Below are positions 36,878 to 58,815 of a stretch of DNA of 64,000 nucleotides, piece after piece. The stretch is taken from positions 145,402-209,401 of the forward strand of contig JAQURD010000002.1 of the NCBI GenBank assembly GCA_028749115.1, given 5' to 3'. Position numbers and translations under genes: made by a program. Under the pieces are notes generated by a model. The model was not told where the DNA came from, made no database searches, and was given only the letters and a program-made list of their open reading frames with translations. The first letter of the stretch is position 1, and each line of letters opens with the position of its first letter. This stretch comes from Acidobacteriota bacterium (lineage in GTDB: Bacteria > Acidobacteriota > Aminicenantia > Aminicenantales > Saccharicenantaceae).

Positions 36878-39208
36878 TCATTTTAATTGAGCCTTTGGGG
36901 CATCATCGACAACTTCATCTAAAATTTCTTGGACTTTAGACAAAGCCTTTTTTGTAAGATTCTGCCCCCTTTTAATTAAAAAGCTATCTTTATCAGCTCT
37001 TATTTCTATTATCTCATTACCCCGTTTGATCTCAATATAGGGCTCCTCAAGGTCAGTGGAATATATATAATCAGCTCTGTCTTGAAGTCCCTCTCTCCCT
37101 TTTAAGTGACGATTAAATAGGTCGTATGTATATAGCTCAGCATGCCTGCCACTTAGTTTTTCTTTCATTAAGAGGTATATCTTAGGAAAGTTTTCATGGT
37201 TAAGTTCGTCTCTATCAGCTCTGATTTTCCTATTTTTACAATAGGCCAAATTGTTAGGATTTTTTATAAAATACTTACGCCAATCGTCTTCCCCAAACTT
37301 CTCGATTATTCTGTTCAGATCCTCCTCGATATTCTTAGAAGTTAGCTCATCCAAAAGATTTTTTAAATACTGACTTTTAATATCATCATTAAACACCTTC
37401 CTCCAGTTGTCCATCTTAGCTCTAAGACCTCCTTCAAAATTGCAAAAGGTATAGTTCATACCATCCTTGACCAGATAATTGCCTTTGGCCAATAATGCTC
37501 TCTCAAAAAGGTCATTTTTCCCGCGATCACCATTACTAAATAATTCATTATTACTAAATAATTCCTTCAGCCTTTCTCCATAATATCTGAATTTCTTTTG
37601 GTCATATCCCCCCTGTCGATCTTTGGAATATTCCAAGATAAAGCCGATCTGTCCGTTAAAATAGCTATGGGTTTCAACATCAACAATTAGTTCTTCCCAA
37701 TTCGGATCTTCCATAATTAACTTTACTTTTTTCTTTTCCTCATCTGTCTGTATCCCTAAAAAGAAGTCAACTTTGGAGTCACCGCTTAGGAGATATTCAT
37801 AAATGTCGTTTATATGATTACTAAGCTCTTTTAACGAGCGGATAGCCCTATAAAAATCCATAGGCTCATCGATTCTGGTATTGTTGATTAAATTCAGAGC
37901 TATTCTCGCCCACCTCTTGAACATCTCCTTATTATTCTCGTTTAAGGCATGATCCCTTATAAAATATTTATACAGTGCATAAAATCTGCACCTTTCCTGG
38001 TAATTGATGGTGCTCCCGCTGTCGTCACCCCTATGAGGTTTAAGAAAGTCTAAAAATATATTCTTAAATGGCTCAATTAGCCTTCGCAATACTTTATGTT
38101 TTCCAAATAAATTGCTAACACTTTCACTATAATGCGTTAAACAATCCAAGCATAAAACGATATTCCTTATATTTTCTTCTGTAAATGTAGAGACTTTTAG
38201 ATCAGACTGGCCATCTCTAGTTTTTTTTTCGTCATCCCACATTTTAAATATTTCATATGAGTCCATAATATCTTTTTCCTCTGATATAAGATTTTCATGA
38301 TGAGCCTCAACATTTAAAAGGAAGACCAGGTTTTCAAGAAAGCTGAAATACTTCTTGTCAACGAATTGCGGACTTATCTTCTGACTTTGCATTTTTTCTA
38401 TTTTCCAGAAAATTTCTAACCATTCATTATCAAATTTCTTTTTTTCATCATTAGTTAGATCTTTAGAAAATAACGCTTTAAAATGTTCCAAAAAAGTCAA
38501 TGGCTTCCCCCTGGCATTCATTTTGATATAAAGCTCGTCAGTAAGAGCAAACTCTTCAAGCGGAAGGAAGTAAAATTCAATCACTGATTGTCCGCCAATC
38601 AGCTTATCCAACAATTCATTTTCCTCTTTTCCAAAGTTTTCTTGAATGATATCCAACATATTTAGCATGTTTGAAACTGTTGGATCTCTCTCCCAAGACA
38701 GAAAGAACCATTTGCAATTTTTTATCGCCTTGCTTATCTCTTTTCCCTTTTCATACTGGACACCCTCGTTTATTAACTTTTTACAAAAATCCTGGGAACT
38801 TAATCTAGTCTCATAACTGAATCGTGATAGACGATCCTTTAGATCCTTATTAAGTCTGTCTTCTTTCAAGGCAAGATACCAATGAAGAAGCCAGAGAGTG
38901 GTGAGCCGCTGCTGGCCATCAATAGGTATCAGTTTTCCTTGATCTATTTTTCCATAAATAAAGTCTAAACTCAGCTTCTTGCCATTTTTGATGCTATCGT
39001 ATATGGCATTTATAAAAGCATCGGCAATTCTTCTCTCTAGAGGTCTCCCTTGGGCATAATCCCTTTGAATTATAGGGATTTCAATTTGATATTCAGCAAT
39101 TAAAGACCAAAAATTGGTTTTCATTTTGGCCCTCTCTATTAGATTCTTTGCCTTTTTCATCTTTAAAATATTCTTCCAATGTTTCGACCATTGACTCAAG
39201 ATAAGCAT
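36878..39208 (-). CDS. DUF262 (ParB-like/GmrS-type) domain protein, type IV-restriction-like
   Basis: IPIIQRDYAQG ... IDGQQRLTTLWLL DGQQR motif; likely true start is the Met at about 39124 (MKTNFWSL...); inserted between hsdS and hsdR. Confidence 0.75.
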   Translation of the reverse strand: MLILSQWSKHWKNILKMKKAKNLIERAKMKTNFWSLIAEYQIEIPIIQRDYAQGRPLERRIADAFINAIYDSIKNGKKLSLDFIYGKIDQGKLIPIDGQQRLTTLWLLHWYLALKEDRLNKDLKDRLSRFSYETRLSSQDFCKKLINEGVQYEKGKEISKAIKNCKWFFLSWERDPTVSNMLNMLDIIQENFGKEENELLDKLIGGQSVIEFYFLPLEEFALTDELYIKMNARGKPLTFLEHFKALFSKDLTNDEKKKFDNEWLEIFWKIEKMQSQKISPQFVDKKYFSFLENLVFLLNVEAHHENLISEEKDIMDSYEIFKMWDDEKKTRDGQSDLKVSTFTEENIRNIVLCLDCLTHYSESVSNLFGKHKVLRRLIEPFKNIFLDFLKPHRGDDSGSTINYQERCRFYALYKYFIRDHALNENNKEMFKRWARIALNLINNTRIDEPMDFYRAIRSLKELSNHINDIYEYLLSGDSKVDFFLGIQTDEEKKKVKLIMEDPNWEELIVDVETHSYFNGQIGFILEYSKDRQGGYDQKKFRYYGERLKELFSNNELFSNGDRGKNDLFERALLAKGNYLVKDGMNYTFCNFEGGLRAKMDNWRKVFNDDIKSQYLKNLLDELTSKNIEEDLNRIIEKFGEDDWRKYFIKNPNNLAYCKNRKIRADRDELNHENFPKIYLLMKEKLSGRHAELYTYDLFNRHLKGREGLQDRADYIYSTDLEEPYIEIKRGNEIIEIRADKDSFLIKRGQNLTKKALSKVQEILDEVVDDAPKAQLK

Positions 39209-40958
39209 CCCTATCTTGTTTTTCCCATTTAACTGTTTGTTCGGAATTCTTAGAAAAATATTTTAAAAAGACATTTTTCGTGCCTATGGGAACAAAGCCA
39301 CCCTTTTTATCTATTTCTATAATCTTTTCCCTTTTGATGGGGAATATATTGTTACTTAGAGCAGAGTTATCATGACTAGAGAGGAGAGTCAAATTATCTA
39401 TTGAATGAATATTGATTTCATCAGAAAATAATTTGTATATTGTATCTTGTATTTTTTTAAATGTATTTTCGTCTATTATTTTCTCCTTTAATAAATCTTC
39501 AATATCTTTGGCCGCTACCAGATATCCATTGTTTTCTAAATATTTCAGTTGATCAGCAAGAAGAAGTTTTCTTTGATTGCTATTTTTTATAGTTTCTGAA
39601 TTTTGGGCATGAATGTGCTCTAGAGTCCATTTTTGTTCGACAAACTTATTAAAAGAGAACCTTGTTTCGTGGCTATCTTTTGCGATTAATATGTTAAATA
39701 ATAAAAGAACTTTCCTTATATCTTTATAATCTCTATCATATTCAAGCTCTCTTAAATAGTTACCGACACTATTTTTGTCCTGGAATTGGATACTTTTCTT
39801 AATTTCGTTTCTTATCCAGTCTTTAAATTCAACTTTGTCATAACTTTGACAGCATTTTATAATTTCCTTAATTTGAGTATCCGAATGGATTAGATAACCA
39901 ATTAGATGATAATATTCATCGTTATAAAACCATTCATCAAACATTCTATGATATGTCTTAACTTCATCCCATAGGCTATCCCGGGCTAAACCTTCTGATG
40001 CAATAATTTGGCCGTTAATAACGTCTATCTTTTTGGATATAAGTTCATTGAATATATAGAACGTATAATAAGGATCGATTAACTTATTTACTTCAATATC
40101 CACCAGCTTTTCATATTTATTAGCAATTAGGTCAAAGATAAATTCAATCCTAGTAGGAATATCATGTTTTTGCCTGTTTAGGAAATACCAAAATTTATCT
40201 GCCCGTAACGCACTTTCTATACTTTCCCATTCGTAGGCTCTTTTGAATTGGTGGTTCTCTCTATCTTCCTCAGATTCTTTAATAAATAAGATTGCCTTTA
40301 TTAGTTCGGCACTGGTCAGTGGTATTTTTCCCATATTTATTCTAGTGAATATTTCTGCTGGATCTTTGACCGCTTCATCATCTTCCGCCTCATACCAAAT
40401 AAATCGCACATTATTCGCTAAATCCCGGCCATTTTTTCTGTCAACCTTTATAAGAGCATTTGCAAAATCAGCCTTTGTAATCCTTTTTTGTTTTATATTT
40501 TCTTCAAACCAGTTCTTAATACATAAAAAGGCTTTGCTGATATAATAATAATCTATATTGTCTTTATCTTCTGTTATGATATCTGAGATCTTTCTTAAGT
40601 AATCTTCACTGCCCGGCCTGGTTTCATATTTTAATTGATAAATATTTTCAATATAGTAATCCTCCTTCAATCTATCCTTTAGAAAGGTTAAAACCAGAAA
40701 TATCGTTGTTAGCCTCTGCTGCCCGTCTATAACCTCATATTCATTCTGATTATTATTGTGCTTTTTGACGACGAGAGGCTGAAGGCAATAAAATTCTCCG
40801 GGTTTCTTATTATATCTACTTTGAAATTCTAAAATATCGTTTAATAGGTCAAGCACCTGCCTTTCATCCCATCTGTAACCCCGCTGATAAGACCCAATGA
40901 TGAATGTCTTGTTGAACAATTCGGGAATTGATATTAATTTAATTTGCGTCTGTGTCAT
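39093..40958 (-). CDS. GmrSD-like fused DUF262-DUF1524 type IV restriction endonuclease
   Basis: N-terminal SYQRGYRWDE ... IDGQQRLTTIFLVL (DUF262); C-terminal WTLEHIHAQN ... NLTLLSSHDNSALSN (DUF1524 His-Me finger-like). Confidence 0.75.
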   Translation of the reverse strand: MTQTQIKLISIPELFNKTFIIGSYQRGYRWDERQVLDLLNDILEFQSRYNKKPGEFYCLQPLVVKKHNNNQNEYEVIDGQQRLTTIFLVLTFLKDRLKEDYYIENIYQLKYETRPGSEDYLRKISDIITEDKDNIDYYYISKAFLCIKNWFEENIKQKRITKADFANALIKVDRKNGRDLANNVRFIWYEAEDDEAVKDPAEIFTRINMGKIPLTSAELIKAILFIKESEEDRENHQFKRAYEWESIESALRADKFWYFLNRQKHDIPTRIEFIFDLIANKYEKLVDIEVNKLIDPYYTFYIFNELISKKIDVINGQIIASEGLARDSLWDEVKTYHRMFDEWFYNDEYYHLIGYLIHSDTQIKEIIKCCQSYDKVEFKDWIRNEIKKSIQFQDKNSVGNYLRELEYDRDYKDIRKVLLLFNILIAKDSHETRFSFNKFVEQKWTLEHIHAQNSETIKNSNQRKLLLADQLKYLENNGYLVAAKDIEDLLKEKIIDENTFKKIQDTIYKLFSDEINIHSIDNLTLLSSHDNSALSNNIFPIKREKIIEIDKKGGFVPIGTKNVFLKYFSKNSEQTVKWEKQDRDAYLESMVETLEEYFKDEKGKESNREGQNENQFLVFNC

Positions 40959-45029: not shown

Positions 45030-45695
45030 TCAACCCTCGAGGACCCGCCCTCCTTTATCAACCCAATAAATTTTAAAGGGCAATAACTTTTTTCTGAACC
45101 ACTCCACTTTCATTAATAGATTTTTGTAGGTGGTAAATCCAGCAGGAAGGGCAATACCAAAATCTACTTCTTGAGACCTGTCACCCCAGAAAATCAGGTC
45201 GAATATCGCTTCTGCGAAATAATGCCTAGCCTGAGCATGCCTGCCCGTCTCTGGATATCCTTTCACGCTAATCCATATGTTCCTTCCCCTTGGATCCTGG
45301 GCGATAACATCTATTCCTTGAGAGCGGGTGGCCGTATCAGAAAAGCTTATTATTTTATATCCCTCTCTTTTTAGCCAGTTGGTCAATTTCACTTGAATAT
45401 TTCCTTCCCAAAACCATGGCTTAGCAAAAGCGTTTTTTTCTCGCTCTGTAGAAATTTTATTTTTCGGCTCAACAAGATAAGAGGAGCCCAGATTTAATTT
45501 GTTTACCTTCTTATTCTTCAGGCAACTACAGCAAAGAGCTTTAGGCCGTAAAATCTTACCTTTCATAGCCAGAGAACGGCATACGGAATTTACTTGCTGT
45601 CTTGGGCCAATTCCGCTTTCTCTTGAAAGACAATCATCACAATAGCCTTCATTATTTTGGCTCAAAAATTCAAGTATTTTTTCTATATTGGTCAT
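45030..45695 (-). CDS. hypothetical protein (221 aa), Cys-rich N-terminus, possible nuclease-like C-terminus
   Basis: 13-bp gap to the upstream gene; N-terminal CDDC ... CCSC cluster; C-terminal GIDVIAQD ... WISVKG weakly reminiscent of Mrr/PD-(D/E)xK folds. Confidence 0.45.
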   Translation of the reverse strand: MTNIEKILEFLSQNNEGYCDDCLSRESGIGPRQQVNSVCRSLAMKGKILRPKALCCSCLKNKKVNKLNLGSSYLVEPKNKISTEREKNAFAKPWFWEGNIQVKLTNWLKREGYKIISFSDTATRSQGIDVIAQDPRGRNIWISVKGYPETGRHAQARHYFAEAIFDLIFWGDRSQEVDFGIALPAGFTTYKNLLMKVEWFRKKLLPFKIYWVDKGGRVLEG

Positions 45696-45708: not shown

Positions 45709-46935
45709 TTATTCAAGTATTTTTTTTAAGATCTCAAAAACTTGATTTTCTCTGTTCCTGGTTACCCTTATAGAAACATCCTGGCTGTGACAAACCTTTC
45801 CGGGCCCAATAATTCTTGCACTTATATATCCGCACCCCTCAACAGGCACTAGAAGACGGAAGCGAAATTTTGAAGAACTGCTCCCTTCTAACATTCTCTT
45901 TTCAAAAAACACTTCTAGGACATCGGGACATCGGCTGAATTCTCTTATAACCTGTCTCATTTCAGGCGGGAGATCATTAATGTTTTCGATCCGCCTCTCA
46001 AATATCGTATTGTCCCCCTTTGAAGTGATTCTTATATCCCTGGGATAATCTAGAAGAACTATTTCCTGTGATTTAATTAAAGGTTCTTTTTGGAATTCCT
46101 GAGACCTTTTATTCTCGCTCAGCTCATTTTTTTTCTTTTTTGGCTCATCCTTAGGATACCCCGCAGGCGGGAAAGGCTTATTAGTAAGTAATACCTTATC
46201 ACGCTCTAAAAAAAACACCTTTTCTGGCTCTATAAGTCTAATTTTTGACTCTTCATTTCCAAGAATATGATCACGGGCCAGTTCACCCAGAGTAGAGAGT
46301 ATTGTGGCTCCTGCATACTGTTCTCCGAACACATGAAGCACCTCAACCTTAGAAGAAATGCGATCCCAGTTTAGAAGGCTGCGGTAGGCTTCCTGGCCGG
46401 TTAAATCAAATAACCTGACAATCTCAAATTGTCCTATATAAGAAAGCATTATTGACGTTAAGAACTCATCTTTAGCCCATATCGCCGTTATATCAGGATG
46501 ATCTTCAATATCACAACTATAAACCTGAATAAGCTCTTCAGGTAAAAGCATTCCATAAAGTGCTGAAATTATCAGAATATGGTGTGGTGCCTCTTCAAGA
46601 ATCCGATCATTTTTCTCCTTGACCGCGGTATAAAATCTTCCAGCATAACGGCTGGCCGCAGACATATAAATTCCGGGCTTTGCTGATCTGCCTCCAAAAT
46701 CCGGGCCTGGAAAAAGTCTCGCATTGAATTGCATCTCCTTGAGATTCAGACCATCCCGACTCAAGGAACCGCTTTTAATAATCTCGAGAACTCTCAATCT
46801 TCTTCTTATGAGTTCACCAGCTATATTAAATGAGATGACCTTCGATATCGAAGGCGCTTCCTTATCATAATCATATTCCCCTTGAACTTTCTGATTTGAA
46901 CAAACCGTGACAATGAGTATATGGCTTTTATTCAT
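45709..46935 (-). CDS. YaaA/DUF328-like domain protein with about 200-aa C-terminal extension
   Basis: N-terminal 170 aa aligns with E. coli YaaA signature blocks: ILIVTVCSNQK ~ LILISPAKT; YAGRFYTAV ~ FKGDVYTGL; HILIISALYGMLLPEELIQVYSCDIE ~ [25 protein letters not shown]. Confidence 0.5.
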   Translation of the reverse strand: MNKSHILIVTVCSNQKVQGEYDYDKEAPSISKVISFNIAGELIRRRLRVLEIIKSGSLSRDGLNLKEMQFNARLFPGPDFGGRSAKPGIYMSAASRYAGRFYTAVKEKNDRILEEAPHHILIISALYGMLLPEELIQVYSCDIEDHPDITAIWAKDEFLTSIMLSYIGQFEIVRLFDLTGQEAYRSLLNWDRISSKVEVLHVFGEQYAGATILSTLGELARDHILGNEESKIRLIEPEKVFFLERDKVLLTNKPFPPAGYPKDEPKKKKNELSENKRSQEFQKEPLIKSQEIVLLDYPRDIRITSKGDNTIFERRIENINDLPPEMRQVIREFSRCPDVLEVFFEKRMLEGSSSSKFRFRLLVPVEGCGYISARIIGPGKVCHSQDVSIRVTRNRENQVFEILKKILE

Positions 46936-47386: not shown

Positions 47387-47872
47387 TTACATCTCTTTTC
47401 TCTTTAGTGCTTTTTCTATTCCCTTCATTTCTTTACTGTGTTCCCGCATTATTTCTTTAAGTATACGATTAATATCTGCATCCCGAGGCACTTTCCCTTT
47501 TACTCGCGCCCCCGGTACCCTAACCAAATGGGTAACAAGGGTTTCTATATCTCTTAAATAATCGACTCGCTTTATCCTGAAAATGACAAAACTATCCCAT
47601 TTCCCGGCATGGCGATCTTTCAAATGCCAGTTAATACGCCTAAATAGGTCAGTGGTCAATCCAACATAATATAATTTATCCTTGCGATAAAGGGCATAGA
47701 TTTCTGAATATCCTTTCATTATTTCCTTAAGCCGCTTTTTAAATACTGGATTGCCAAAAATACTATAGGGAAGCTTCTTTGACATGCCTTTAATCAAGGC
47801 ACCCTTAGTCGTCTTTTTTTTGCTTTTCGGTATAGTTCCCTTGCCAACTTTTTTCCCATTTCGTTCATTCAT
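47387..47872 (-). CDS. GIY-YIG nuclease family protein with Lys-rich N-terminal tail
   Basis: GYSEIYALYRKDKLYYVGLTTDLFRRINWH matches GIY-(x10)-YVG with downstream Arg/His; alternative start at Met52 (47719) would give a canonical roughly 110-aa GIY-YIG protein. Confidence 0.65.
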   Translation of the reverse strand: MNERNGKKVGKGTIPKSKKKTTKGALIKGMSKKLPYSIFGNPVFKKRLKEIMKGYSEIYALYRKDKLYYVGLTTDLFRRINWHLKDRHAGKWDSFVIFRIKRVDYLRDIETLVTHLVRVPGARVKGKVPRDADINRILKEIMREHSKEMKGIEKALKRKEM

Positions 47873-48611: not shown

Positions 48612-51600
48612 TCAAGTTGGATCGTCATCATCTATGTTTGAACACTTTTGAATTTTTTCAATAACAGAGGTTATCAAAGAATTAATATAGCTTTTTATTG
48701 TCCCTGGCGGACATTTATCATACATCCTTTCTAATGATTCTTTTTTATGTGCCAGGTCAGATGAAATTTGCCAAGTTGCAGATGGACTACCAAAGAAAAC
48801 TTGTTGAGCAAGAACATGTTTTATCTCATCGAAGAGGCCAACTTTTTCAGTAGCTATTAAATATTCTAAGTATAAATCAGTTGTACCATTGCTAAAAGGC
48901 ACGCTACATAATGCATTGGCAGCAATTCTTAAATTCCCAACATCTCCTGCTTCTACTTTCTCGCTGATATAGCCCATTAGATAATCTCTTTGTTCATTAT
49001 CAGTGGTGCAAAGATTACTAATTAATAATTCATTTGATAAAGGCGACAAAAGACCTTCGTTGGACCAAGTATTAACTTTTTCCATCAGTTTCACAAAATC
49101 TTCATATGTTCTAATCAGCCCTTTTACCGAACCGAACCCATCAAAGGGCATCGCATCATAGTCTAAAATTTTACCTCTCTTATAATATTCACTTTGCTTT
49201 TTAATGCGATAGTCAACCAGACTAATGAATTTATCTAAATCACTGTTAATCGCGAATCCTAAGAGGTTATCAGTATGGTGATCTATCTTGGGAATTTCTC
49301 TTATTATCTCAACAAGCCTTTTTCGTATCTTTTCCAAATCCTCGTCTCGCAGGTTCCAATTCTTTGCTTCTTGTATCAAAAAATCGCAAGCCTCTAAGAC
49401 TGGATGGCCTACTTCTCCTTGTAAGGATTGTTCAAGAATATAGACTATTTGATCTCTTTCTTTCTGCGGCCTATCTTTAAAAATCTGATAAGAACTGTAG
49501 AGAATACGGCTCCTGACATAATCGTCGGCCCGTTCAATAATTCTCAAAAGCCACGGCATAAATTTTGACTCAGAAACATTATGGCTAATTATAAGGTCCA
49601 ATAAGATACCAACCATTTGTGGCCGCAGGTTTTCCAAATCAGCAAGTATAGATTCAGCATATTTATCAATATATCTTTTGTCCTTATCGGAAGCAGCTTG
49701 GCAAATACCAGGATGAAATCTTTCTGGAATCTTCTCCATAAGTTTTCTGTTAGTTGCTATTTGAATAAATGCTTTTTCGTTAAATTTCGACCATGTCTCA
49801 ATCAATGGGACAGGCCCCAGCCGCGCAATTCCGTTTATTTCATTTTCTAATCTATTTAGATATCCAATTATTTCATCCTGTTGTTTGTTCTTATCAGACA
49901 ACTTTTTTACTAACACATCAAAATCTCTCTGTTGAAATGCGATGCATCGATAATAATTATCAATAAGCCATGTCCTCCTGTCTTTCCCTGGGGTCTCCTC
50001 TTCTAGTTTCTTAAAATCAGAAATAATTAGGTCGTCCACAACAAAGTATCTAAATATTAGATAATCTATTGACCTAGGAAATGCTCTTAGTATGTCTGCT
50101 GCCTTAGCACTTAAATTTGGGTGATCTTCGTTATCTTCCCAATATCTGATCAGAACATCTTCAACTGCACTAAGAAGTTGATGAGAGTCAGTAAAGTTTA
50201 TTAGTTTTTCTAACCATGTAAAGGCTTTTTCGATATCTCGAAGGATTCTATCCCAGAAGTCATCATTCTTGGAAGCCGGACGATATCCAATATAATCGAT
50301 TATTTCTATACCCATCTTTTTAATCTTGTCATTTTGATGGAATAAAAAACATTTAAGCACTTCCATTGCCTTATCTCTATATTGATCTATAGATTTTTTG
50401 AAAGAACCACTATACCGAAGGACTTTTCTCCCAATAATCAGCTGATATTCATAGCCTTCTTGGTACTCATGAGAACCTGATAGGGCTTCTTTTACGCCTT
50501 CGCTAGCTAATTCCGCTTCAAGTTCGGTACAGCTCGCCTTGTTTACCCAGCTTAAAAGTTCATTTAAAGAGTTTGTTGCGGATGTTATATTTTTTTCTAT
50601 AGGAGAGACGATATTTCTTATAAGCGTCGTCGGTTTGTAATTATGACATGTCCCTTTGAGACCTTTTTGAGCAATATAAAGAATCAACTCAAGAGTCACT
50701 TTTTCATATCCGGGAATATGAAGAATGCTATAGATAATCGGTCCATAAGAATCTTGATTAAGTCGATAGCCTTCTTCGGTGCTTGATGAATCTATATAGG
50801 CATAAGTCAAATTAATTGTCTGATCTGGAGCTAAAAAAGCCACATGGCCAGCGAGCTCAAGTCGCTTTGCTTTTTCCCAGTCATTAGTCTGCGATACCTC
50901 ATCAATCCATTTTTTTAACAGGTCCTTGACAGCTTCATTGACCAGAGTTGTTTCTTTGTATAGGGATGCATCTGCTAAATTAGCCATTAGCTGGTCAGGA
51001 CATATAGACAACCAGTTGTCCAACATAGTATGAGCTATATTTTTTTCGCTCTTTTTATCCAGCTCAATAGATAAATAAATGTCACCTTTCATATCAGGAT
51101 TGAATCTTAAAGAAGAACCGGTTTTGCGAAGGATTTTTGACTCGACGAGCCGATCCATGGCTTCATTTATTAAATCAGTTTTCAGATCCAATACAGATGC
51201 TAATTGTTCGATTATTTTATTAGCTTGTTTCTCTTTTGGAAAGGGTAAAATTGCTGATAGCTCTCTTAAGAGATTTTTTGTATCCCGTTCATTCAATAGC
51301 CCCTGGAGAGCGTTTTCGGCCTCACGATCAAGTTCATCTTTAATGCGTGTTTTTATCTCTCTTCCATCGGTTGCTCCATCTTTTATATACTTACCCGTAA
51401 CTACAATTAAGAATAGATTCCCGTTTAATTGTTTAACAATTCTTTCCGGATGATTAATTGTTTTTGAACCTGACGCAATATTCAAGATTTCTATCAAAAT
51501 CTTTTCTGGCAGTTTAGGTAATTCAAAAACCTCATAATTATAAATACTCTGCTTACAAGCTAACTCTTCTACAATTTTCAATCCTGAACTCCGGCAAGAC

Positions 51601-52457
51601 AAAATTATCTTCAACAACCCTGGACAAAAAGTCTTCGTGTGAGCAATTAGTTTTCGTGCTTCATCCTGATATCTATCTGCATCATCCAGAAATACTACTG
51701 TATTTTTCTCGTGATTCAATTCATTAATGGCATTATTGAGATCACTTATTCCCGGCCTACAAAACCAAGCTTGCATATCAGGCTTGATTTTGATCACATT
51801 TTTCCCAGCGTCGATGATAAAATGAGTTTTTCCATATCCACCACAAGCATGAACAATGAATATTTTGCTTCTGGAGTCTTGTAAAAACTTCTCGAAGGTC
51901 TCTAACGAATCTTCTCTTCCTAAGAAATTACTGAGAATGTGCTCTGACTGCGCTTTAGCAAACTTTTGGGGCGGAACAAACATCGGCTCCTGAGTATCGC
52001 CGAAGTAATTGTACCTAAGCCATGGGTACTGGACGATTCTGCTCTCAAGATTTGCACGCGGCCAAATAAATAATTTTTTTACAAACCCTTGACCCTGATT
52101 CAGCCTCTCTAGTTTACCAACATGATCATTTATACCTACTCTAAGATCGGCATTAGTCGCAATTAAAAGATAGTCCACCCGATTTTTCTTAGCCTTTTTC
52201 AATTCGTCTTTTACCTCTTGACGCAATTGCTTATAAGCTTGATTAAGATTATGCTTTGTCCATTTCGACTGAAAATTCCAGACACCGCAATATTCCATAT
52301 ATGGACCGTCATAGCGACCATCCCACCCGCCATCGGCGGCTATTGCTGGGCTACTTGAAAGGTAACCAGGGTTGTTTATCTCCAGCGCAAATAAGTCATT
52401 CACCAAACGCTGGAAATCCCTATCATTATTAATTTTCCCCCAGTCCAGTTCTTTCAT
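48612..52457 (-). CDS. Avs-like antiviral STAND NTPase: N-terminal Mrr-like restriction-endonuclease domain + P-loop NTPase + about 950-aa helical repeat sensor
   Basis: aa 15-100 DFQRLVNDLF ... ADGGWDGRYD ... NFQSKW ... VDYLLIATNADL (Mrr_cat-like D ... QxK); Walker A IFIVHACGGYGKTHF (aa about 200), Walker B VVFLDDADR; rest is predicted alpha-helical repeats. Confidence 0.65.
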   Translation of the reverse strand: MKELDWGKINNDRDFQRLVNDLFALEINNPGYLSSSPAIAADGGWDGRYDGPYMEYCGVWNFQSKWTKHNLNQAYKQLRQEVKDELKKAKKNRVDYLLIATNADLRVGINDHVGKLERLNQGQGFVKKLFIWPRANLESRIVQYPWLRYNYFGDTQEPMFVPPQKFAKAQSEHILSNFLGREDSLETFEKFLQDSRSKIFIVHACGGYGKTHFIIDAGKNVIKIKPDMQAWFCRPGISDLNNAINELNHEKNTVVFLDDADRYQDEARKLIAHTKTFCPGLLKIILSCRSSGLKIVEELACKQSIYNYEVFELPKLPEKILIEILNIASGSKTINHPERIVKQLNGNLFLIVVTGKYIKDGATDGREIKTRIKDELDREAENALQGLLNERDTKNLLRELSAILPFPKEKQANKIIEQLASVLDLKTDLINEAMDRLVESKILRKTGSSLRFNPDMKGDIYLSIELDKKSEKNIAHTMLDNWLSICPDQLMANLADASLYKETTLVNEAVKDLLKKWIDEVSQTNDWEKAKRLELAGHVAFLAPDQTINLTYAYIDSSSTEEGYRLNQDSYGPIIYSILHIPGYEKVTLELILYIAQKGLKGTCHNYKPTTLIRNIVSPIEKNITSATNSLNELLSWVNKASCTELEAELASEGVKEALSGSHEYQEGYEYQLIIGRKVLRYSGSFKKSIDQYRDKAMEVLKCFLFHQNDKIKKMGIEIIDYIGYRPASKNDDFWDRILRDIEKAFTWLEKLINFTDSHQLLSAVEDVLIRYWEDNEDHPNLSAKAADILRAFPRSIDYLIFRYFVVDDLIISDFKKLEEETPGKDRRTWLIDNYYRCIAFQQRDFDVLVKKLSDKNKQQDEIIGYLNRLENEINGIARLGPVPLIETWSKFNEKAFIQIATNRKLMEKIPERFHPGICQAASDKDKRYIDKYAESILADLENLRPQMVGILLDLIISHNVSESKFMPWLLRIIERADDYVRSRILYSSYQIFKDRPQKERDQIVYILEQSLQGEVGHPVLEACDFLIQEAKNWNLRDEDLEKIRKRLVEIIREIPKIDHHTDNLLGFAINSDLDKFISLVDYRIKKQSEYYKRGKILDYDAMPFDGFGSVKGLIRTYEDFVKLMEKVNTWSNEGLLSPLSNELLISNLCTTDNEQRDYLMGYISEKVEAGDVGNLRIAANALCSVPFSNGTTDLYLEYLIATEKVGLFDEIKHVLAQQVFFGSPSATWQISSDLAHKKESLERMYDKCPPGTIKSYINSLITSVIEKIQKCSNIDDDDPT

Positions 52458-53475
52458 AGATAGTCTCTTTTAATCTAAAAAATAAATTTGCTTTTAAGCT
52501 TCATAACAGGAATAAGAATTAATGTTCCAATTTTGCCTTTCTAACCATTATATGAAATATAATGTGCTAAAAAATGGATGTCAACACACTGCCTCATTCA
52601 GTTAAGATGAATTATCGAGGGGGGGACTATAATAGCCAAAAGTAATTGTATTGCCAGCTGCTGACAACAGCTGGAAGATTGGCCGGGCAAGCCAGTTAGT
52701 TTTTGCAATTTGTATGAGCTTTATATAGCCATACGGAATAGTTAAATTAAAATGAGAGTAGCCATGGGAAAGCATACCATATATAAGATTTTTTCTGCCC
52801 AAGTTACAAGGGAAACCTCTGTCTAATAAAGAAGGTTATTAAACACTGAAGATATGATCGGAATTCGCATTAAATGGCTAGCCATTTAATGCTATAATCC
52901 CATGGATTTAGACATATAAAAACAGGGTTTACATTACGCACTCGATGGCAAGAAGAATTTTATGCTAATTTAGAAAAGATTTTAACTGCTTTCAGCTAGG
53001 AATTCATATAACGGTTTGAAGGAGGCGGTAGCACGGATTATTTCGTCCTTGAAACTTTCGTGTTCCATCTCCGGATAATCCTTGAAGAAATATCTGGTTC
53101 TGATCATTAGCTGACCGTTGTAACCTTTCTTGCGGGCAATGGCGCTGCAAGAATTCCAGATAGATATTAGGCAATTTGTTTCTTAGCTCAAAGAGCTGGC
53201 TTTCAAACTCACGGAAAAGATTATCATCCTGGGTCGTGTTTTTTATTCCATTTTTCTTCTTGACAACTGCCCGCCGGCGAATTATTTTTAAAATTGAACG
53301 GTTAGTTAACAGGGGAAAAGCGATGCGCCTCGGGTATAGCTGTCTGATCAGGGGAGAATTATCGGAATTTCTACATTTCCAGCGGGCTTTTTTCTAAATA
53401 TGGCTCTGCCTCGGGGCAATTTTGTTCAATTTAGTTGATCATTTTGCCCTGGGTCAGGCCGCAGGAGGTAAAGGG

Positions 53476-54936
53476 ATGAAAAAAGTTCCAAAAACGGCTG
53501 CCAATCTATTATTAAATTATTTCGTCAGCGATCCCCTGCCACGGTTGCCAAAGCTCTTAACTCTGGCTGAATCTCTTGACCGGGGACACCTGCGGACCAA
53601 CAAAATCCGGCGGCTCCGCGAAATTCTGATGAATGAGAATAGCAACTGGCATCTGTTCGTCAAAAAATTGGCCGAGGAAGTGGATCCAAAGTGTCTGAAA
53701 AAGCTGGTCGAGTGCTTTTTTGTTAACTCAATGCTGGATGGCATTCCGCTGGCACATGACCTGTCGGAAAAGTATGATTGCAATATCCCCTGGGTCATTC
53801 TGATGGACCCAACCAGCGCCTGCAATCTGTCCTGTGTCGGCTGCTGGGCGGCTGAGTATGGCCAAAAATACAATCTCTCTTACGAGCTTCTCGACTCGAT
53901 CATCCGTCAGGGAAAAGAAATCGGCATCCATTTTTATATTTTTTCAGGCGGCGAGCCCCTGGTCAGAAAGAAAGATATACTGCGTTTGTGCCGTGCTCAT
54001 CAGGACTGCTATTTCTTTGCCTTCACCAATGGCACGCTGGTTGACGATGAATTCTGCCAGGAATTGCGGAAACTCGGCAACTTCGCCCTGGCTTTCTCGA
54101 TCGAAGGCGACCGGGAGGCAACTGATTTCCGCCGCGGCGAGGGCGCCTATCAAAAAGTCATAGAGGCTATGGATAGAATGAAGGCCCACAAGCTTTTCTT
54201 TGGCTATTCGGCCTGCTATCACCACTACAACACCGAGAATGTCATATCTGATGAATTTGTTGACAATATGATTGCCCGGGGCTGCCGCTATGCCTGGTAT
54301 TTTACTTATATTCCGATAGGAAAAAGCGCCAGGACCGATTTGCTGGTCACGCCTGAGCAGCGAGCCTATATGTACAGGCGCATCAATGAAGTGCGGGCCA
54401 CCAAGCCTCTCTTTGGCATGGATTTCTGGAATGACGGCCAATATGCTTATGGCTGCGTGGCCGGCGGCAAGCGTTATTTCCATATCAATGCGGCTGGCGA
54501 TGTCGAACCGTGTGCTTTTATCCACTACTCTAACGTCAATATCCATGACGTCAGCCTGCTGGATGCGCTGCGGTCACCGATCTTTATGCAGTACAGACGG
54601 AGGCAGCCATTTAATGAGAACCCGCTCAGGCCCTGTCCGCTCCTTGATAACCCGGAGATACTGGTGGACATGGTGAAGGAGTCGGGAGCCAAATCAACTG
54701 ACATGGAAGCACCGGAAGACGTGGAGGAACTCTGCGCCAAAACACGGGAAGCAGCCAGGCGGTGGGCGCCGGTTGCTGAACAGCTGAGGCCGCGGCCCAA
54801 GGTAGCTCAGGCGGCGCAGGGGGCAGAGACAACGCAGGCAGCACAGGCAGCTGCTCAGGCTACTGAACAGGTGGCTCGACCTTCTGAGCAGGCAGGCCAT
54901 CCTTCCGCTCAGCCGCCGACCTCGCCCTCTGCTTAG
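53476..54936 (+). CDS. radical SAM/SPASM-domain protein with about 100-aa N-terminal extension and Ala/Gln-rich C-terminal tail
   Basis: CNLSCVGCW CxxxCxxC cluster; FSGGEPL SAM motif; C-terminal GCVAGG ... AAGDVEPCAF ... RPCPLL SPASM cysteines; strong RBS AGGAGG before the 2nd Met (53476), whereas the track ORF begins at 53422. Confidence 0.85.
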   Translation: MKKVPKTAANLLLNYFVSDPLPRLPKLLTLAESLDRGHLRTNKIRRLREILMNENSNWHLFVKKLAEEVDPKCLKKLVECFFVNSMLDGIPLAHDLSEKYDCNIPWVILMDPTSACNLSCVGCWAAEYGQKYNLSYELLDSIIRQGKEIGIHFYIFSGGEPLVRKKDILRLCRAHQDCYFFAFTNGTLVDDEFCQELRKLGNFALAFSIEGDREATDFRRGEGAYQKVIEAMDRMKAHKLFFGYSACYHHYNTENVISDEFVDNMIARGCRYAWYFTYIPIGKSARTDLLVTPEQRAYMYRRINEVRATKPLFGMDFWNDGQYAYGCVAGGKRYFHINAAGDVEPCAFIHYSNVNIHDVSLLDALRSPIFMQYRRRQPFNENPLRPCPLLDNPEILVDMVKESGAKSTDMEAPEDVEELCAKTREAARRWAPVAEQLRPRPKVAQAAQGAETTQAAQAAAQATEQVARPSEQAGHPSAQPPTSPSA

Positions 54937-55027: not shown

Positions 55028-55294
55028 CTATTTAGCCAGCGTTATCTGCCTGCTTTTTTTCTTTTTTCTGGCCCATTCGATGGCTTCCTCTACATCTTGC
55101 TCGCTTAGACCAAGTTCGGCCATTTTCTTCCTCACTTTTTCTAAGGAACCTTCACCAACAGGGGTCATCTTCACTGGCTCAAGAATTATCTTGCCGTCTT
55201 CGACATGAACTTCAAAATATTCGACATCCTCCAGATTCTCCATTATTTTTTTGGGCAAAGTGATTTGGTTTTTATAGGTCCTTTTGCAAAGCAT
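55028..55294 (-). CDS. AbrB/MazE/SpoVT-family (swapped-hairpin) DNA-binding protein, antitoxin-like
   Basis: YKNQITLPKKIMENL ... GKIILEPV matches the SpoVT-AbrB looped-hinge fold; acidic/basic C-terminal tail. Confidence 0.5.
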   Translation of the reverse strand: MLCKRTYKNQITLPKKIMENLEDVEYFEVHVEDGKIILEPVKMTPVGEGSLEKVRKKMAELGLSEQDVEEAIEWARKKKKSRQITLAK

Positions 55295-55632
55295 TGGTCA
55301 GCCTCCACAATAATATTAAGCTCTGGTAATGCATCTGTCAAGTAATATTTCCTTACATCCTTCTACGCTTGCTAATTCTTATGAACATAAGGATCACCAA
55401 CTCCGCTTCTATTTATACCAAACTTATAACAAGCCCATTTCAGGCCAGAAGCATCACTCTTAGTTCAATTATTTACCAAGATAGTGGCCCTGGTTAACAT
55501 CCTGAATCAAATTTAACTGTTAAATCTTAGGCCGGCTCCCTGAGAGGCTATGGCCAGTCAAATCAGGCGGCTTAAGAATACTTCAATAGAAAGCTATTTA
55601 TCGATCAGGATAATTGGTGAATTTGGAATCTC

Positions 55633-56277
55633 TTATTTTTGCAAAGTGTCATATAAACTTACTATTTTTTGCTCTAAGAGTTTTATTTCATTTTCTAAGC
55701 CATCTGGTACTTCTAAATACTTTTTTAAGGTTTCCAATCCAACCAGAGCTGCATATTTTATAAACCCTGACAATAGCAAAAGATTAGTTTTAACGACACT
55801 ATCATCTACTATTGGCTCGATATGCCATCTGCCAGTTTCCATATTAACTAGATGGCCTATTGAATCCCAAGAAACCTTCATGTGTGATGCATATTCGTTT
55901 AAATGCTCTCGAAGTTCTTGGAATTTTCCGTCTATTATTTTTGCTATTTCCCCTGCAGAAGGCAATTTGTCATCTAAAAATAGTTGTATCCTCTTTTCGT
56001 CCTCGGTTAAGAATGTTAATGCTTCCAAATACTCTATTGCCAGTCGGAGCAAAGCACCAGATTCTTGTCCTAACCCTTCCCATATCAAAATATATATGGC
56101 TTTAAATAGATATTTACATTTGACAAGTATCAATCCGCATACCCTTACGAATGTGCTGTCATTAACATGCTTGTTAAAAACTCGAATTTCCTTATCTAAG
56201 ATATCAAAGCCACGGGTAACAATTTCTTTATATTGTTCTATCTGCTTTTGAAAATCTTCGTCATTTACTTGAAACAT
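55633..56277 (-). CDS. hypothetical protein (214 aa, helical)
   Basis: Clean AT-rich ORF; no motif. Confidence 0.4.
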   Translation of the reverse strand: MFQVNDEDFQKQIEQYKEIVTRGFDILDKEIRVFNKHVNDSTFVRVCGLILVKCKYLFKAIYILIWEGLGQESGALLRLAIEYLEALTFLTEDEKRIQLFLDDKLPSAGEIAKIIDGKFQELREHLNEYASHMKVSWDSIGHLVNMETGRWHIEPIVDDSVVKTNLLLLSGFIKYAALVGLETLKKYLEVPDGLENEIKLLEQKIVSLYDTLQK

Positions 56278-56349
56278 TTCAATATACCCTATCGGTTCTA
56301 CCGCTAGAACATCTTCTGCCTCTGGCCTTCTGACCTCCTCGCTGCTTTT

Positions 56350-56622
56350 CTACCCTTCCCCTGATATTCTTTTATCATGCAAAATTGCCCAGATATAAGA
56401 AGGCCCGCGGACCTTATTGTTTATAGCTCCAGGCCCATCAACGGGCATAAGATCATAGGCAGTCGCGAAATCGCTTTTTGATAAATTATAATTCGTCCTT
56501 GACACTTTAATACTGGAACCATGTACCCAATAGCAAAACTGCTCTCCGTTTTTCGTATAGAATGTTTCACCCTGATGGCCCAGTACTTTTTGCCAAATAG
56601 CCTCAAAATTTGATTGGCTCAT
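56350..56622 (-). CDS. hypothetical protein (90 aa), second gene of a coupled pair
   Basis: Start overlaps the upstream ORF stop (ATGA). Confidence 0.4.
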   Translation of the reverse strand: MSQSNFEAIWQKVLGHQGETFYTKNGEQFCYWVHGSSIKVSRTNYNLSKSDFATAYDLMPVDGPGAINNKVRGPSYIWAILHDKRISGEG

Positions 56623-57203
56623 ACCTGATCTCCTATTTTATGTTTTGGTTTAGCCAGGTAAATCCTGGCCTCACTTTTGCTATTAAACCTGACAGCATAA
56701 GGCTCTGCGATAACCTCAGCAACATTTACAATACGATTCATATGGATACTATTCCATAAATCGTCTTTTGTCTTGTCTACAGGCATTGGGTAAACGATAA
56801 ACATCACCAGTTGCTCGCAATCCTGGTTGGGACATTTTTTGAGTTTTTTTACATCATCAATCACATGTTGAACCTGATTTGTTATAGGTTTTCCAGGCAG
56901 ATTATAGTTCGTTACGATAACTTCCAGGCCGCACCATATCTCTTTTTCATTTGTTTTAAACCAGATGTCGCAAAAGCCTGCTTTCGGCCCATATACTTCC
57001 TCGAGATTTGCATCGACAACGGTCCCGATTTTCTTACACTCATTAAGATACCAGATAAACTCACCCTGTAACCACTTCTCACAGCTGGCTTGCCTATTTA
57101 AATATGGTATAAAGTAATCTTTTTGTTTGGAGAGAAACTCAAAGAACCCCGAAAATATTTCTATACCTACCCCCTCCCCTGAACAGGCACTGACCGCATC
57201 AGC
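56619..57203 (-). pseudogene. roughly 195-codon open frame lacking any ATG/GTG/TTG in its first 113 codons (possible frameshifted gene)
   Basis: Continuous protein-like frame ADAVSACSGEGVGIEIFSGFFEFLSKQKDYFIPYLNRQ ... QVQHVIDDVKKLKKCPNQDCEQLVMF ... ; the track calls only the last 81 codons from a GTG at 56864. Confidence 0.4.
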
Positions 57204-57441
57204 TTATATTGCTCATTAGATGCCTACAAATAACGGGCAGCGTTGCTCTATCTTTGTACATTAAGGTTAAGATAACTAATAGATTAAAGTCAAATTTGAC
57301 TCTCTTTCCCAGTTGAGCTTGCCAAAGAAGGACAGGAGGCAATTGCACAAAATAGGCCATCTACATCAGATAGACAATAGTATGAGCAGAGCTTGAAAGA
57401 ATGAACAGATCATTAAGCCTGCCCATTACAAGTGAAACCAA

Positions 57442-57924
57442 TTAGCTCTGTTTTTTCTTTTTTTGTGGCGGCTTTTCTTCCTTTTTCCTTGCCTTCAAAA
57501 GAGGAAGTGTAATCGGGGGGATATTCATGCGTGCTGTCGTATTGTAAATAAATTCTCTAAAAAACGGCCAGGTATTGATATGCAAGTTAGCCTTTTTAAA
57601 CTCCTCAAAAAATTCTGGTGAGAAACAGCTGGCGGGAGAATAATTCAAGCAAAAGGCACATTCTATCTTACCAGCCGCTTTAACTTCAGCAGTCTTCAAC
57701 ATCATCTCCACACAATATCGGTGAATTACATCAACTGTATCATCGTCCTTAACTGCCATAGACGGCTCGTCAATAATATTAATCAAGTGTTCTGCTTCCT
57801 TTCCTTGAAAAAAGGCGTCTCTATCTATTTCGCATGAAGAGCTCTTGAGGTACATACCATTCAGTTTAATTTTCCCAATAATTTCTGCATATTTTTCTTC
57901 GCTTATAGCCCTTTTCTTACTCAT
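57442..57924 (-). CDS. hypothetical protein (160 aa) immediately downstream of hicB
   Basis: 8-nt gap after hicB, co-oriented; Lys-rich C-terminus; no motif. Confidence 0.4.
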   Translation of the reverse strand: MSKKRAISEEKYAEIIGKIKLNGMYLKSSSCEIDRDAFFQGKEAEHLINIIDEPSMAVKDDDTVDVIHRYCVEMMLKTAEVKAAGKIECAFCLNYSPASCFSPEFFEEFKKANLHINTWPFFREFIYNTTARMNIPPITLPLLKARKKEEKPPQKKKKQS

Positions 57925-57932
57925 TTTTTCTC

Positions 57933-58502
57933 CTAGCAGAGAGATTTTCTATATATATTTTTATTTTCATTTACCGTTGGTTGTGGAGCAAAGTCAACAT
58001 CCTGCAAATTTATCCGATATGGAGGCTTTCGCCATTCATTAAACACTTGTAACATTGTCTGTGACATTGTTTCGACTTCATTTTCATATTTAAGAGACGC
58101 TAAGCCTCGTTCAATCAGGTGATTCAAGAGCTGGTTGAGGCTGATATCCTGTTCTTTGGCCAGTTTAGATAATTCTTCGTGAAGATAAAATGGAATTCGC
58201 AGCAATATCCGCCCGCTGTACCGTTCTTCGTCCTTTTCAGGCTCAGGAATTTGTACCCCGCCCCGCAGATACATTTCAAAGAGATCTCTCTTGACCACAT
58301 CAAGATGGGCCAGAGCCTCTTCAATGGTGTCGCCATAGCCACGAAAGGCTTCTCTTCCAAGCTGAGGAATCCTGGCTTCATAGCCACCACCATCCTCATC
58401 ATTAAAAGGCACTATTTCTACCTTATATCTGTGATTCAGATAATAACTGAGATCTTTTTCCTGAACTTTTTTTTCAGCTTTCTTTTTCATTGTCCTTTTC
58501 AC
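57933..58502 (-). CDS. hicB: HicB-family antitoxin (RNase H-like N-terminal domain + RHH DNA-binding domain)
   Basis: YKVEIVPFNDEDGGGYEARIPQLGREAFRGYGDTIEEALAHL HicB signature; C-terminal GRILLRIPFYLHEELSKLAKEQDISLNQLLNHLIERGL ribbon-helix-helix. Confidence 0.75.
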   Translation of the reverse strand: MKRTMKKKAEKKVQEKDLSYYLNHRYKVEIVPFNDEDGGGYEARIPQLGREAFRGYGDTIEEALAHLDVVKRDLFEMYLRGGVQIPEPEKDEERYSGRILLRIPFYLHEELSKLAKEQDISLNQLLNHLIERGLASLKYENEVETMSQTMLQVFNEWRKPPYRINLQDVDFAPQPTVNENKNIYRKSLC

Positions 58503-58815
58503 TTTTTCCCTCCATTAGCTCACAGATTTCTATGGCTTCAATAATCTTCTCTACATAACAACGCTTAACGGTTTGTCCGCTTTTAACTGGAATGGTAAAA
58601 ACTCCCTCTAAAGCATACTTCGTGCTTAAAGGATTTTGCTCTTTATATTTACCCAATCTGGGATCTTTAACAATGATATGTGAGCCTCTTTTATGTTCAT
58701 AATATTCAAAAGAATCCTTTATTATGCTTTCGACTTCTTCTACTCTGAGTTCTGGAAGCTTCTCTCCGCGTGCCTGCTTGTCTTTAAGCTGCTGGATACG
58801 CTTTTTAACACTCAT
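58474..58815 (-). CDS. hicA: HicA-family mRNA interferase toxin
   Basis: HKRGSHIIVKDP ... dsRBD-like HicA fold; overlaps hicB by 29 nt. Confidence 0.7.
   Translation of the reverse strand: MSVKKRIQQLKDKQARGEKLPELRVEEVESIIKDSFEYYEHKRGSHIIVKDPRLGKYKEQNPLSTKYALEGVFTIPVKSGQTVKRCYVEKIIEAIEICELMEGKSEKDNEKES

Follow-up and report, generated by a model that had tools for sequence, protein, structure and literature searches.

The gene at 48612..52457 on the minus strand of the window (the whole 64,000-nucleotide stretch of Acidobacteriota DNA analysed here) likely encodes a single-protein antiviral STAND sensor, similar to Avs and NLR proteins, that would act by abortive infection. The coordinates include the stop codon, and all gene features described below lie on the same strand. 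The ORF is intact, starts with ATG and specifies 1281 aa in three parts, a nuclease, a STAND NTPase and a helical sensor. This is the tripartite Avs/NLR-like plan proposed in the first-pass annotation, which is supported by the domain anatomy, the conserved residues and a defence-type context; the ORF and every motif quoted there were recovered, at the residues given below. The same protein, with 100% identity, is listed at NCBI as MDD8019995.1 ('hypothetical protein', from a MAG of the Acidobacteriota). Homologs align with its N-terminus position by position, which indicates that the start codon has been placed correctly. The ATG follows a purine-rich stretch, and a promoter-like TTGACA-17-TATATT is found ~100 nt 5' of it (52556..52584, minus strand). 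The site is a consensus match only (11/12 positions, top score in the region), and can be called no more than suggestive, since shuffled sequence contains at least as many such sites in total.

The N-terminal domain (aa 1-165, 51963..52457) is predicted by fold and motifs to work as a Mrr-type nuclease, and is the presumed effector. Identification from sequence alone failed, with only noise returned by Pfam, NCBIfam and phmmer/hmmsearch comparisons with PDB sequences, and structure prediction was needed. The Pfam profile that had been suggested as a check, Mrr_cat (PF04471), gave no match to the query and a single weak one (E 0.0028) among 33 family members; the query does not reach the gathering threshold, so that its sequence alone does not place it in Mrr_cat. 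From 33 sequences of the family, AlphaFold2 produced a model with a pLDDT of 88 and a pTM of 0.83 that is weak only at a loop at aa 40-44. The succession in this model of a helix (12-27), two strands (48-53 and 56-65), a second helix (71-91) and a further strand (96-101) indicates a PD-(D/E)xK core, with the alpha-beta-beta-beta-alpha-beta arrangement, in which strand 2 bears a conserved acidic residue and strand 3 carries (D/E/Q)xK. Together with the conserved motifs, the model bears out the restriction-endonuclease layout originally read from the letters. The acidic motif AADGGWDG (aa 40-47, 52317..52340; ADGGWDGRYD is aa 41-50) holds D42 and D46, both unchanged in 56/56 sequences, and is the putative metal-binding 'D' of PD-(D/E)xK. 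NFQSKW (aa 61-66, 52260..52277) places the (Q/E)xK motif on a beta strand, with Q (54/56) or E (2/56) at position 63 and K at position 65 in 55/56, while YLLIATNA (aa 96-103, 52149..52172) is a hydrophobic core strand ending in T-N-A, in which T101 and A103 are unchanged across the 56 sequences and N102 is present in 54. The catalytic-type residues are thus kept across sequences with 20-86% identity to the query. The best structural match of the domain is the Avs4 nuclease, and LlaBIII, AspBHI and MspJI are other close neighbours. Mrr-type restriction nucleases (PF04471; AF1548, 1Y88; the LlaBIII nuclease domain) are part of stand-alone restriction enzymes, whereas the Mrr-like domain of the query is joined to a STAND switch, for which it is the effector.

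The central module (aa 195-455) has the nucleotide-binding domain, helical arm and winged helix of a STAND-type NTPase. The P-loop nucleotide-binding domain (aa 195-315, 51513..51875) contains the Walker A motif ACGGYGKT (aa 204-211, 51825..51848; GGYGKT is aa 206-211), with an unvarying G209 and K210 and with S or T at position 211 in all 56 sequences, and the Walker B motif VVFLDD (aa 254-259, 51681..51698; VVFLDDADR is aa 254-262) with an invariant D258. In the helical arm and winged-helix domain of the NOD module (aa 316-455, 51093..51512), P405 and R451-F452 of RFNPD are invariant. Across the family alignment, R289 and D455 are likewise invariant or nearly so; R289 may be a sensor-I-like residue, and R451, F452 and D455 appear to sit in the winged helix at the place where STANDs usually contact the nucleotide. 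The query matches Pfam nSTAND_NTPase5 slightly below the cutoff (E 5e-8, 33.2 bits vs 34), the same match is precomputed for nearly all of the 97 homologs, and more distant relatives sharing the N-terminal domain also match NB-ARC and nSTAND3 above cutoffs. Kaur et al. 2021 defines nSTAND1 and nSTAND2 only, and the term 'nSTAND5' was not found in the literature searched. In a model of aa 168-1281 (87 sequences; pLDDT 87, pTM 0.69), a P-loop core of five strands is followed by a helical arm and then by a winged helix, whose beta-hairpin spans aa 443-452, and in structure comparisons NLRP3 and NOD2 align over 350 residues. The Pfam match, the invariant Walker residues and the modelled winged helix agree with the initial call of a central P-loop STAND NTPase. 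A helicase or translocase was also considered and rejected, since helicase motifs and matches were absent and a winged helix was present.

The remainder of the protein (aa 456-1281, 48615..51092) is modelled as a HEAT/ARM-like alpha-solenoid, the presumed sensor, interrupted by one conserved beta-hairpin (aa ~663-678, SGSHEY...). Its Foldseek neighbours are of HEAT/ARM type, and at 826 aa it falls within the range of large C-terminal helical-repeat sensors (at least 400 aa). The helical character first attributed to this region holds in the model, but the length of ~950 aa does not; aa 316-455 are part of the NTPase module, leaving ~826 aa for the sensor. The proposed dissimilarity to Avs1-5 sensors is also upheld, the modelled sensor failing to superpose on those of the solved Avs3, Avs4 and Avs5 in structure comparisons, and the sensor fold is without a solved or modelled counterpart.

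The protein carries the fused N-terminal defence effector, here a nuclease, expected of Avs proteins in the broad sense, and it fits the computable parts of that definition. It is not a member of Avs1-5, as the query matches none of the PADLOC models for Avs1-Avs5; among its relatives the sole match to a PADLOC Avs model was to Avs2, over the P-loop only (E 9.5e-4). Closest in function is Avs4 (EcAvs4, PDB 8DGF), a Mrr nuclease-STAND-TPR protein whose trigger is the phage portal; the two agree in effector (Mrr nuclease), switch (STAND NTPase) and type of sensor (helical). Nevertheless, Avs4 and the family share no sequence similarity detectable by profile searches of PDB sequences or by the PADLOC Avs4 model, and a global TM-score of 0.17 means that the sensors are not superposable. 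Avs4 is also longer (~1540 aa), while the 1281-aa query has an NTPase of the Pfam nSTAND5 group. Avs5 (AVAST type 5; EfAvs5, PDB 9JAP) is a SIR2-STAND-sensor protein, with a SIR2 effector where the query has a nuclease; the two can be aligned over only 244 residues (12% identity), with no match in the sensor. PADLOC v2 has no model for the family, and two of its candidate families resemble it in part. PDC-S73 is matched by 9/33 members (best E 1e-8) and by the relative P0184 at E 6e-12, and PDC-M58A by 8/33 members, the matches of the query itself to both being weak. The likeness is confined to the first ~90-200 profile positions, that is, the N-terminal domain, and with 752 positions the PDC-S73 profile represents a shorter protein.

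Searches retrieved ~97 homologs, nearly all of 1265-1300 aa, that align end to end. A word-indexed search with the N-domain profile gave gene fragments only, and the exhaustive HMMER search was the informative one, returning 290 cluster representatives, most of them 1250-1360 aa long, which shows that the domain is essentially tied to one architecture; a few members carry an extra N-terminal XRE-type HTH. Mean pairwise identity is 0.52 in the nuclease, 0.35 in the nucleotide-binding domain, 0.32 in the arm plus winged helix, and 0.31, 0.29 and 0.24 in successive thirds of the sensor. One-genome-per-species data (185,579 species) contain 19 loci, all in MAGs, with bacterial hosts among the Patescibacteria, Omnitrophota, Armatimonadota, Gammaproteobacteria and Bacteroidota, and archaeal hosts among Methanobacterium, Theionarchaea, Halobacteria and Bathyarchaeota. 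The family is thus rare, patchy and common to bacteria and archaea, which implies horizontal transfer, and all known hosts belong to uncultivated MAG lineages. Three traits are mildly unusual: the restriction to uncultivated hosts in Bacteria and Archaea alike, the constancy of the effector and the near-fixed length of the sensor.

In the window, the gene lies in a block of low GC content (0.32-0.41 from ~31 to 53 kb vs 0.45-0.55 in the flanks), so that the AT-rich island described in the first-pass annotation is real. Of the neighbours named there, the type I R-M genes are firmly identified, with hsdR, hsdS and hsdM matches at E 1e-132 or better, and the GIY-YIG gene (47387-47872) is marginal (Pfam E 2e-4, 22.0 bits vs a cutoff of 22.6). 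The block also holds two tandem GmrSD_N/DUF262 genes, and MazE-like and HicAB toxin-antitoxin genes follow past a radical-SAM gene of normal GC. Side features of the region are a YgjP-like peptidase gene that accompanies the type I R-M operon and an uncharacterised two-gene cassette in the same low-GC block as the STAND gene. The island in the window has no att-like direct repeats, adjacent tRNA, Rfam element or flanking recombinase, and 2.9 million IMG/VR viral contigs contained no relative of the protein; a prophage origin was rejected on the viral-contig, repeat, tRNA and Rfam results.

Eleven independent loci, the window included, were annotated by hand, and in this small sample the gene is enriched for defence neighbours, with an adjacent R-M system in 6/11 and defence or mobile-element genes in 9/11. 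Besides the type I R-M and GmrSD-like genes of the window, the neighbours are a PLD-SNF2 helicase with an MmeI-type methyltransferase (L001), a SIR2_2 gene 31 bp upstream and an integrase (L003), a type III R-M system that overlaps the start codon (L004), a ParB-methyltransferase, a terminase-like gene and a reverse transcriptase (L005), AbiEi/AbiEii (L006), a serine recombinase and a DGR (L007), a type I R-M system directly upstream and a DGR (L027), and a type ISP R-M system with patatin, PemK and Panacea (L030). A housekeeping context, which the first-pass annotation had named as telling against its reading if found consistently, was seen in just two loci (L028 and L029, with housekeeping genes only). 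Against the published chance of 0.0153 that a random gene lies within 5 kb of a defence system (PMC13581612), R-M adjacency in 6/11 loci gives a binomial P of ~6e-9, a rough figure given that the annotation method differs from that of PMC13581612. All-against-all BLAST of the flanking ORFs revealed no family-wide partner gene. In a CPR subclade, the gene is directly flanked by two further ORFs, one of 286 aa on the downstream side and one of 185 aa on the upstream side, which the window lacks.

The mechanism we favour is carried over from Avs3, Avs4 and Avs7 (PMC13581612), and by analogy with these proteins the resting state would be an autoinhibited monomer. Binding of some viral protein by the 826-aa HEAT-like solenoid would free the STAND module, which would then bind ATP and oligomerise, probably into a tetramer. 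Oligomerisation would in turn pair the N-terminal Mrr-like PD-(D/E)xK domains into active dimers, and these may cut double-stranded DNA indiscriminately, so that the infection would be aborted.

The same parts could instead form an NTP-dependent restriction-type enzyme, similar to type IV or type ISP systems, whose solenoid binds foreign or modified DNA or RNA, whose NTPase acts as a switch and whose Mrr-like nuclease cuts the recognised nucleic acid, giving direct restriction and not abortive infection. In general, HEAT-like repeats are able to bind DNA; in addition, the structural neighbours LlaBIII, AspBHI and MspJI are modification-dependent or ATPase-coupled nucleases, and the gene often adjoins or overlaps R-M operons. 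We nevertheless consider this explanation unlikely, as the NTPase, with its winged helix, belongs to the STAND type and is neither a helicase nor a translocase, the top nuclease match is Avs4, a protein sensor, the profile search of the query gave no recognisable DNA-binding domain, and protein binding is usual among the characterised large helical STAND sensors (PMC13581612). It is similarly improbable that the protein serves conflicts between mobile elements, in which case integrative elements would carry it and its STAND-nuclease chemistry, unchanged, would exclude rival elements or plasmids or would stabilise the carrier in the manner of an addiction module. In 4 independent loci large serine recombinases are no more than 10 kb away, in 3 loci a cassette of ParB-methyltransferase and terminase-like genes lies next to the gene, and the integrase, DGRs and toxin-antitoxin modules near homologs, like HicAB and the MazE-like gene in the window, point in the same direction; set against this are the negative search of viral contigs and the lack of a recombinase or att-like repeats flanking the gene in the window. 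As defence systems commonly ride mobile elements, such a role would be more a sub-case of the antiviral sensor than an alternative to it. A non-immune STAND protein of signalling or regulation, or a decaying non-functional gene, is highly improbable, since, although defence and non-defence STAND clades are interspersed in phylogeny (PMC13581612) and two homolog loci have housekeeping surroundings, the ORF is intact and full length, the catalytic-type residues are kept in 56 sequences, the output domain is a nuclease and not an HTH, and the context is defence-enriched. The gene is real, well formed and probably functional, and its existence was conceptually expected.

Lee et al. (Nature 2026, PMC13581612) catalogued 589 STAND clades, 198 of them defence-associated, 684 structural clusters of sensors, and at least 90 Avs families that include nSTAND clades and Mrr effectors. 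The query fits this catalogue in its architecture, helical-repeat sensor, Mrr effector and nSTAND clade, the family (e.g. MDD8019995.1, HRZ95530.1) having been compared with it by architecture. The functionally tested STAND families, mostly from Enterobacteriaceae, include none detectably related to the query. A more speculative reading, which we regard as possible but doubtful, is that of a distinct, unnamed Avs family of uncultivated anaerobes that is exchanged between bacteria and archaea and has a trigger new for Avs. Such a family could circulate among Patescibacteria, Omnitrophota, KSB1 and Acidobacteriota on the bacterial side and Methanobacterium, Halobacteria, Bathyarchaeota and Theionarchaea on the archaeal side, and could combine a length-invariant HEAT-like sensor with an unchanging effector and, in the CPR subclade, two small accessory genes. 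Its trigger would be, for example, a fold common to archaeal and bacterial viruses, or would come from viruses of episymbiotic CPR bacteria.

The established concept is unchanged by these findings, as the class of Mrr-STAND-helical-sensor proteins is already well documented: structures have been solved, triggers are known and the families number at least 90. If functional, the family extends nuclease-armed NLR-like immunity to CPR/Patescibacteria, Omnitrophota, methanogens and Bathyarchaeota, about whose virus-host biology hardly anything is known, and the identity of its trigger would reveal a viral target protein conserved in such communities, and whether one sensor spans the divide between bacteria and archaea.

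The sensor of the STAND protein is a HEAT/ARM-like α-solenoid in which the sole β element is a hairpin (amino acids ~657-678, in the region encoded at 48615-50477 of the window). The hairpin bears the near-invariant E657, L659 and H663 within the motif LxGSHEY and, along with the invariant P619, R694, W773, W830 and R1084, counts as one of the most strongly conserved sensor segments. It is a candidate contact site for ligand binding or autoinhibition. At the other end of the protein, some homologues (P0059, P0089, P0142 and P0161) begin with an additional N-terminal extension of ~65 amino acids before the nuclease domain proper. The extensions of P0059 and P0089 match XRE/MqsA-type HTH families (PF01381, PF15731 and PF13560; precomputed Pfam), hinting at autoregulation or DNA tethering within a subclade.

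The type I R-M operon of the low-GC island in the window also contains tandem GmrSD_N/DUF262 genes (36878-39208 and 39093-40958, both on the minus strand), which overlap by 116 bp and sit between hsdR and hsdS. The second has a weak GmrSD_C match and was also matched by the PADLOC models Orf5, HEC-06 and SspE. No PADLOC model matched the first. Between hsdM and the GIY-YIG-like ORF lie two further minus-strand genes, separated by 13 bp, that may represent an uncharacterised defence pair. The product of one (45030-45695, 221 amino acids) has no match in Pfam or PADLOC; its Cys-rich N-terminus is followed by ‘GIDVIAQD...NIWISVKGY’, a D...xK pattern reminiscent of PD-(D/E)xK nucleases. The other product (45709-46935, 408 amino acids) gave sub-threshold matches to YaaA and DUF6884 and nothing else. 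Past a radical-SAM/SPASM gene of normal GC content (53422-54936, plus strand), a further low-GC stretch (55028-58815) encodes, all on the minus strand, a MazE-like antitoxin ORF (55028-55294), a DUF5677 protein (55633-56277) and adjoining HicB (57933-58502) and HicA (58474-58815). Given low-GC stretches on both sides of this core-like gene, the island appears to be split by it or to flank it.

Two function-unassigned ORFs accompany the STAND gene in the Patescibacteria subclade; neither has a recorded Pfam match, and the window lacks both. One, of ~286 amino acids (L004:11862-12731, L009:13862-14731, L011:13831-14655 and L027:11858-12718), begins 3-6 bp past the STAND stop codon and shares 42-48% identity between loci; the other, of 185 amino acids (L001:9431-9988 and L027:7441-7998; 71% identity), lies directly upstream.

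In a Methanobacterium MAG (locus L003), a SIR2_2-domain gene (L003:8587-9969) stops 31 bp ahead of the STAND homologue, which it matches in strand. A phage-type integrase lies ~5 kb upstream, and this arrangement may be an archaeal defence islet. Three distant hosts share a cassette beside the STAND gene (L005:2766-6317, L011:4353-8188 and L013:1971-5183) that comprises a ParB_N-N6_N4 methyltransferase, a small HTH gene and a Terminase_6C-like gene. In four independent loci, large serine recombinases occur no more than 10 kb away. Although IMG/VR viral contigs yielded no relative, this suggests that the STAND gene is carried on an unclassified mobile element.
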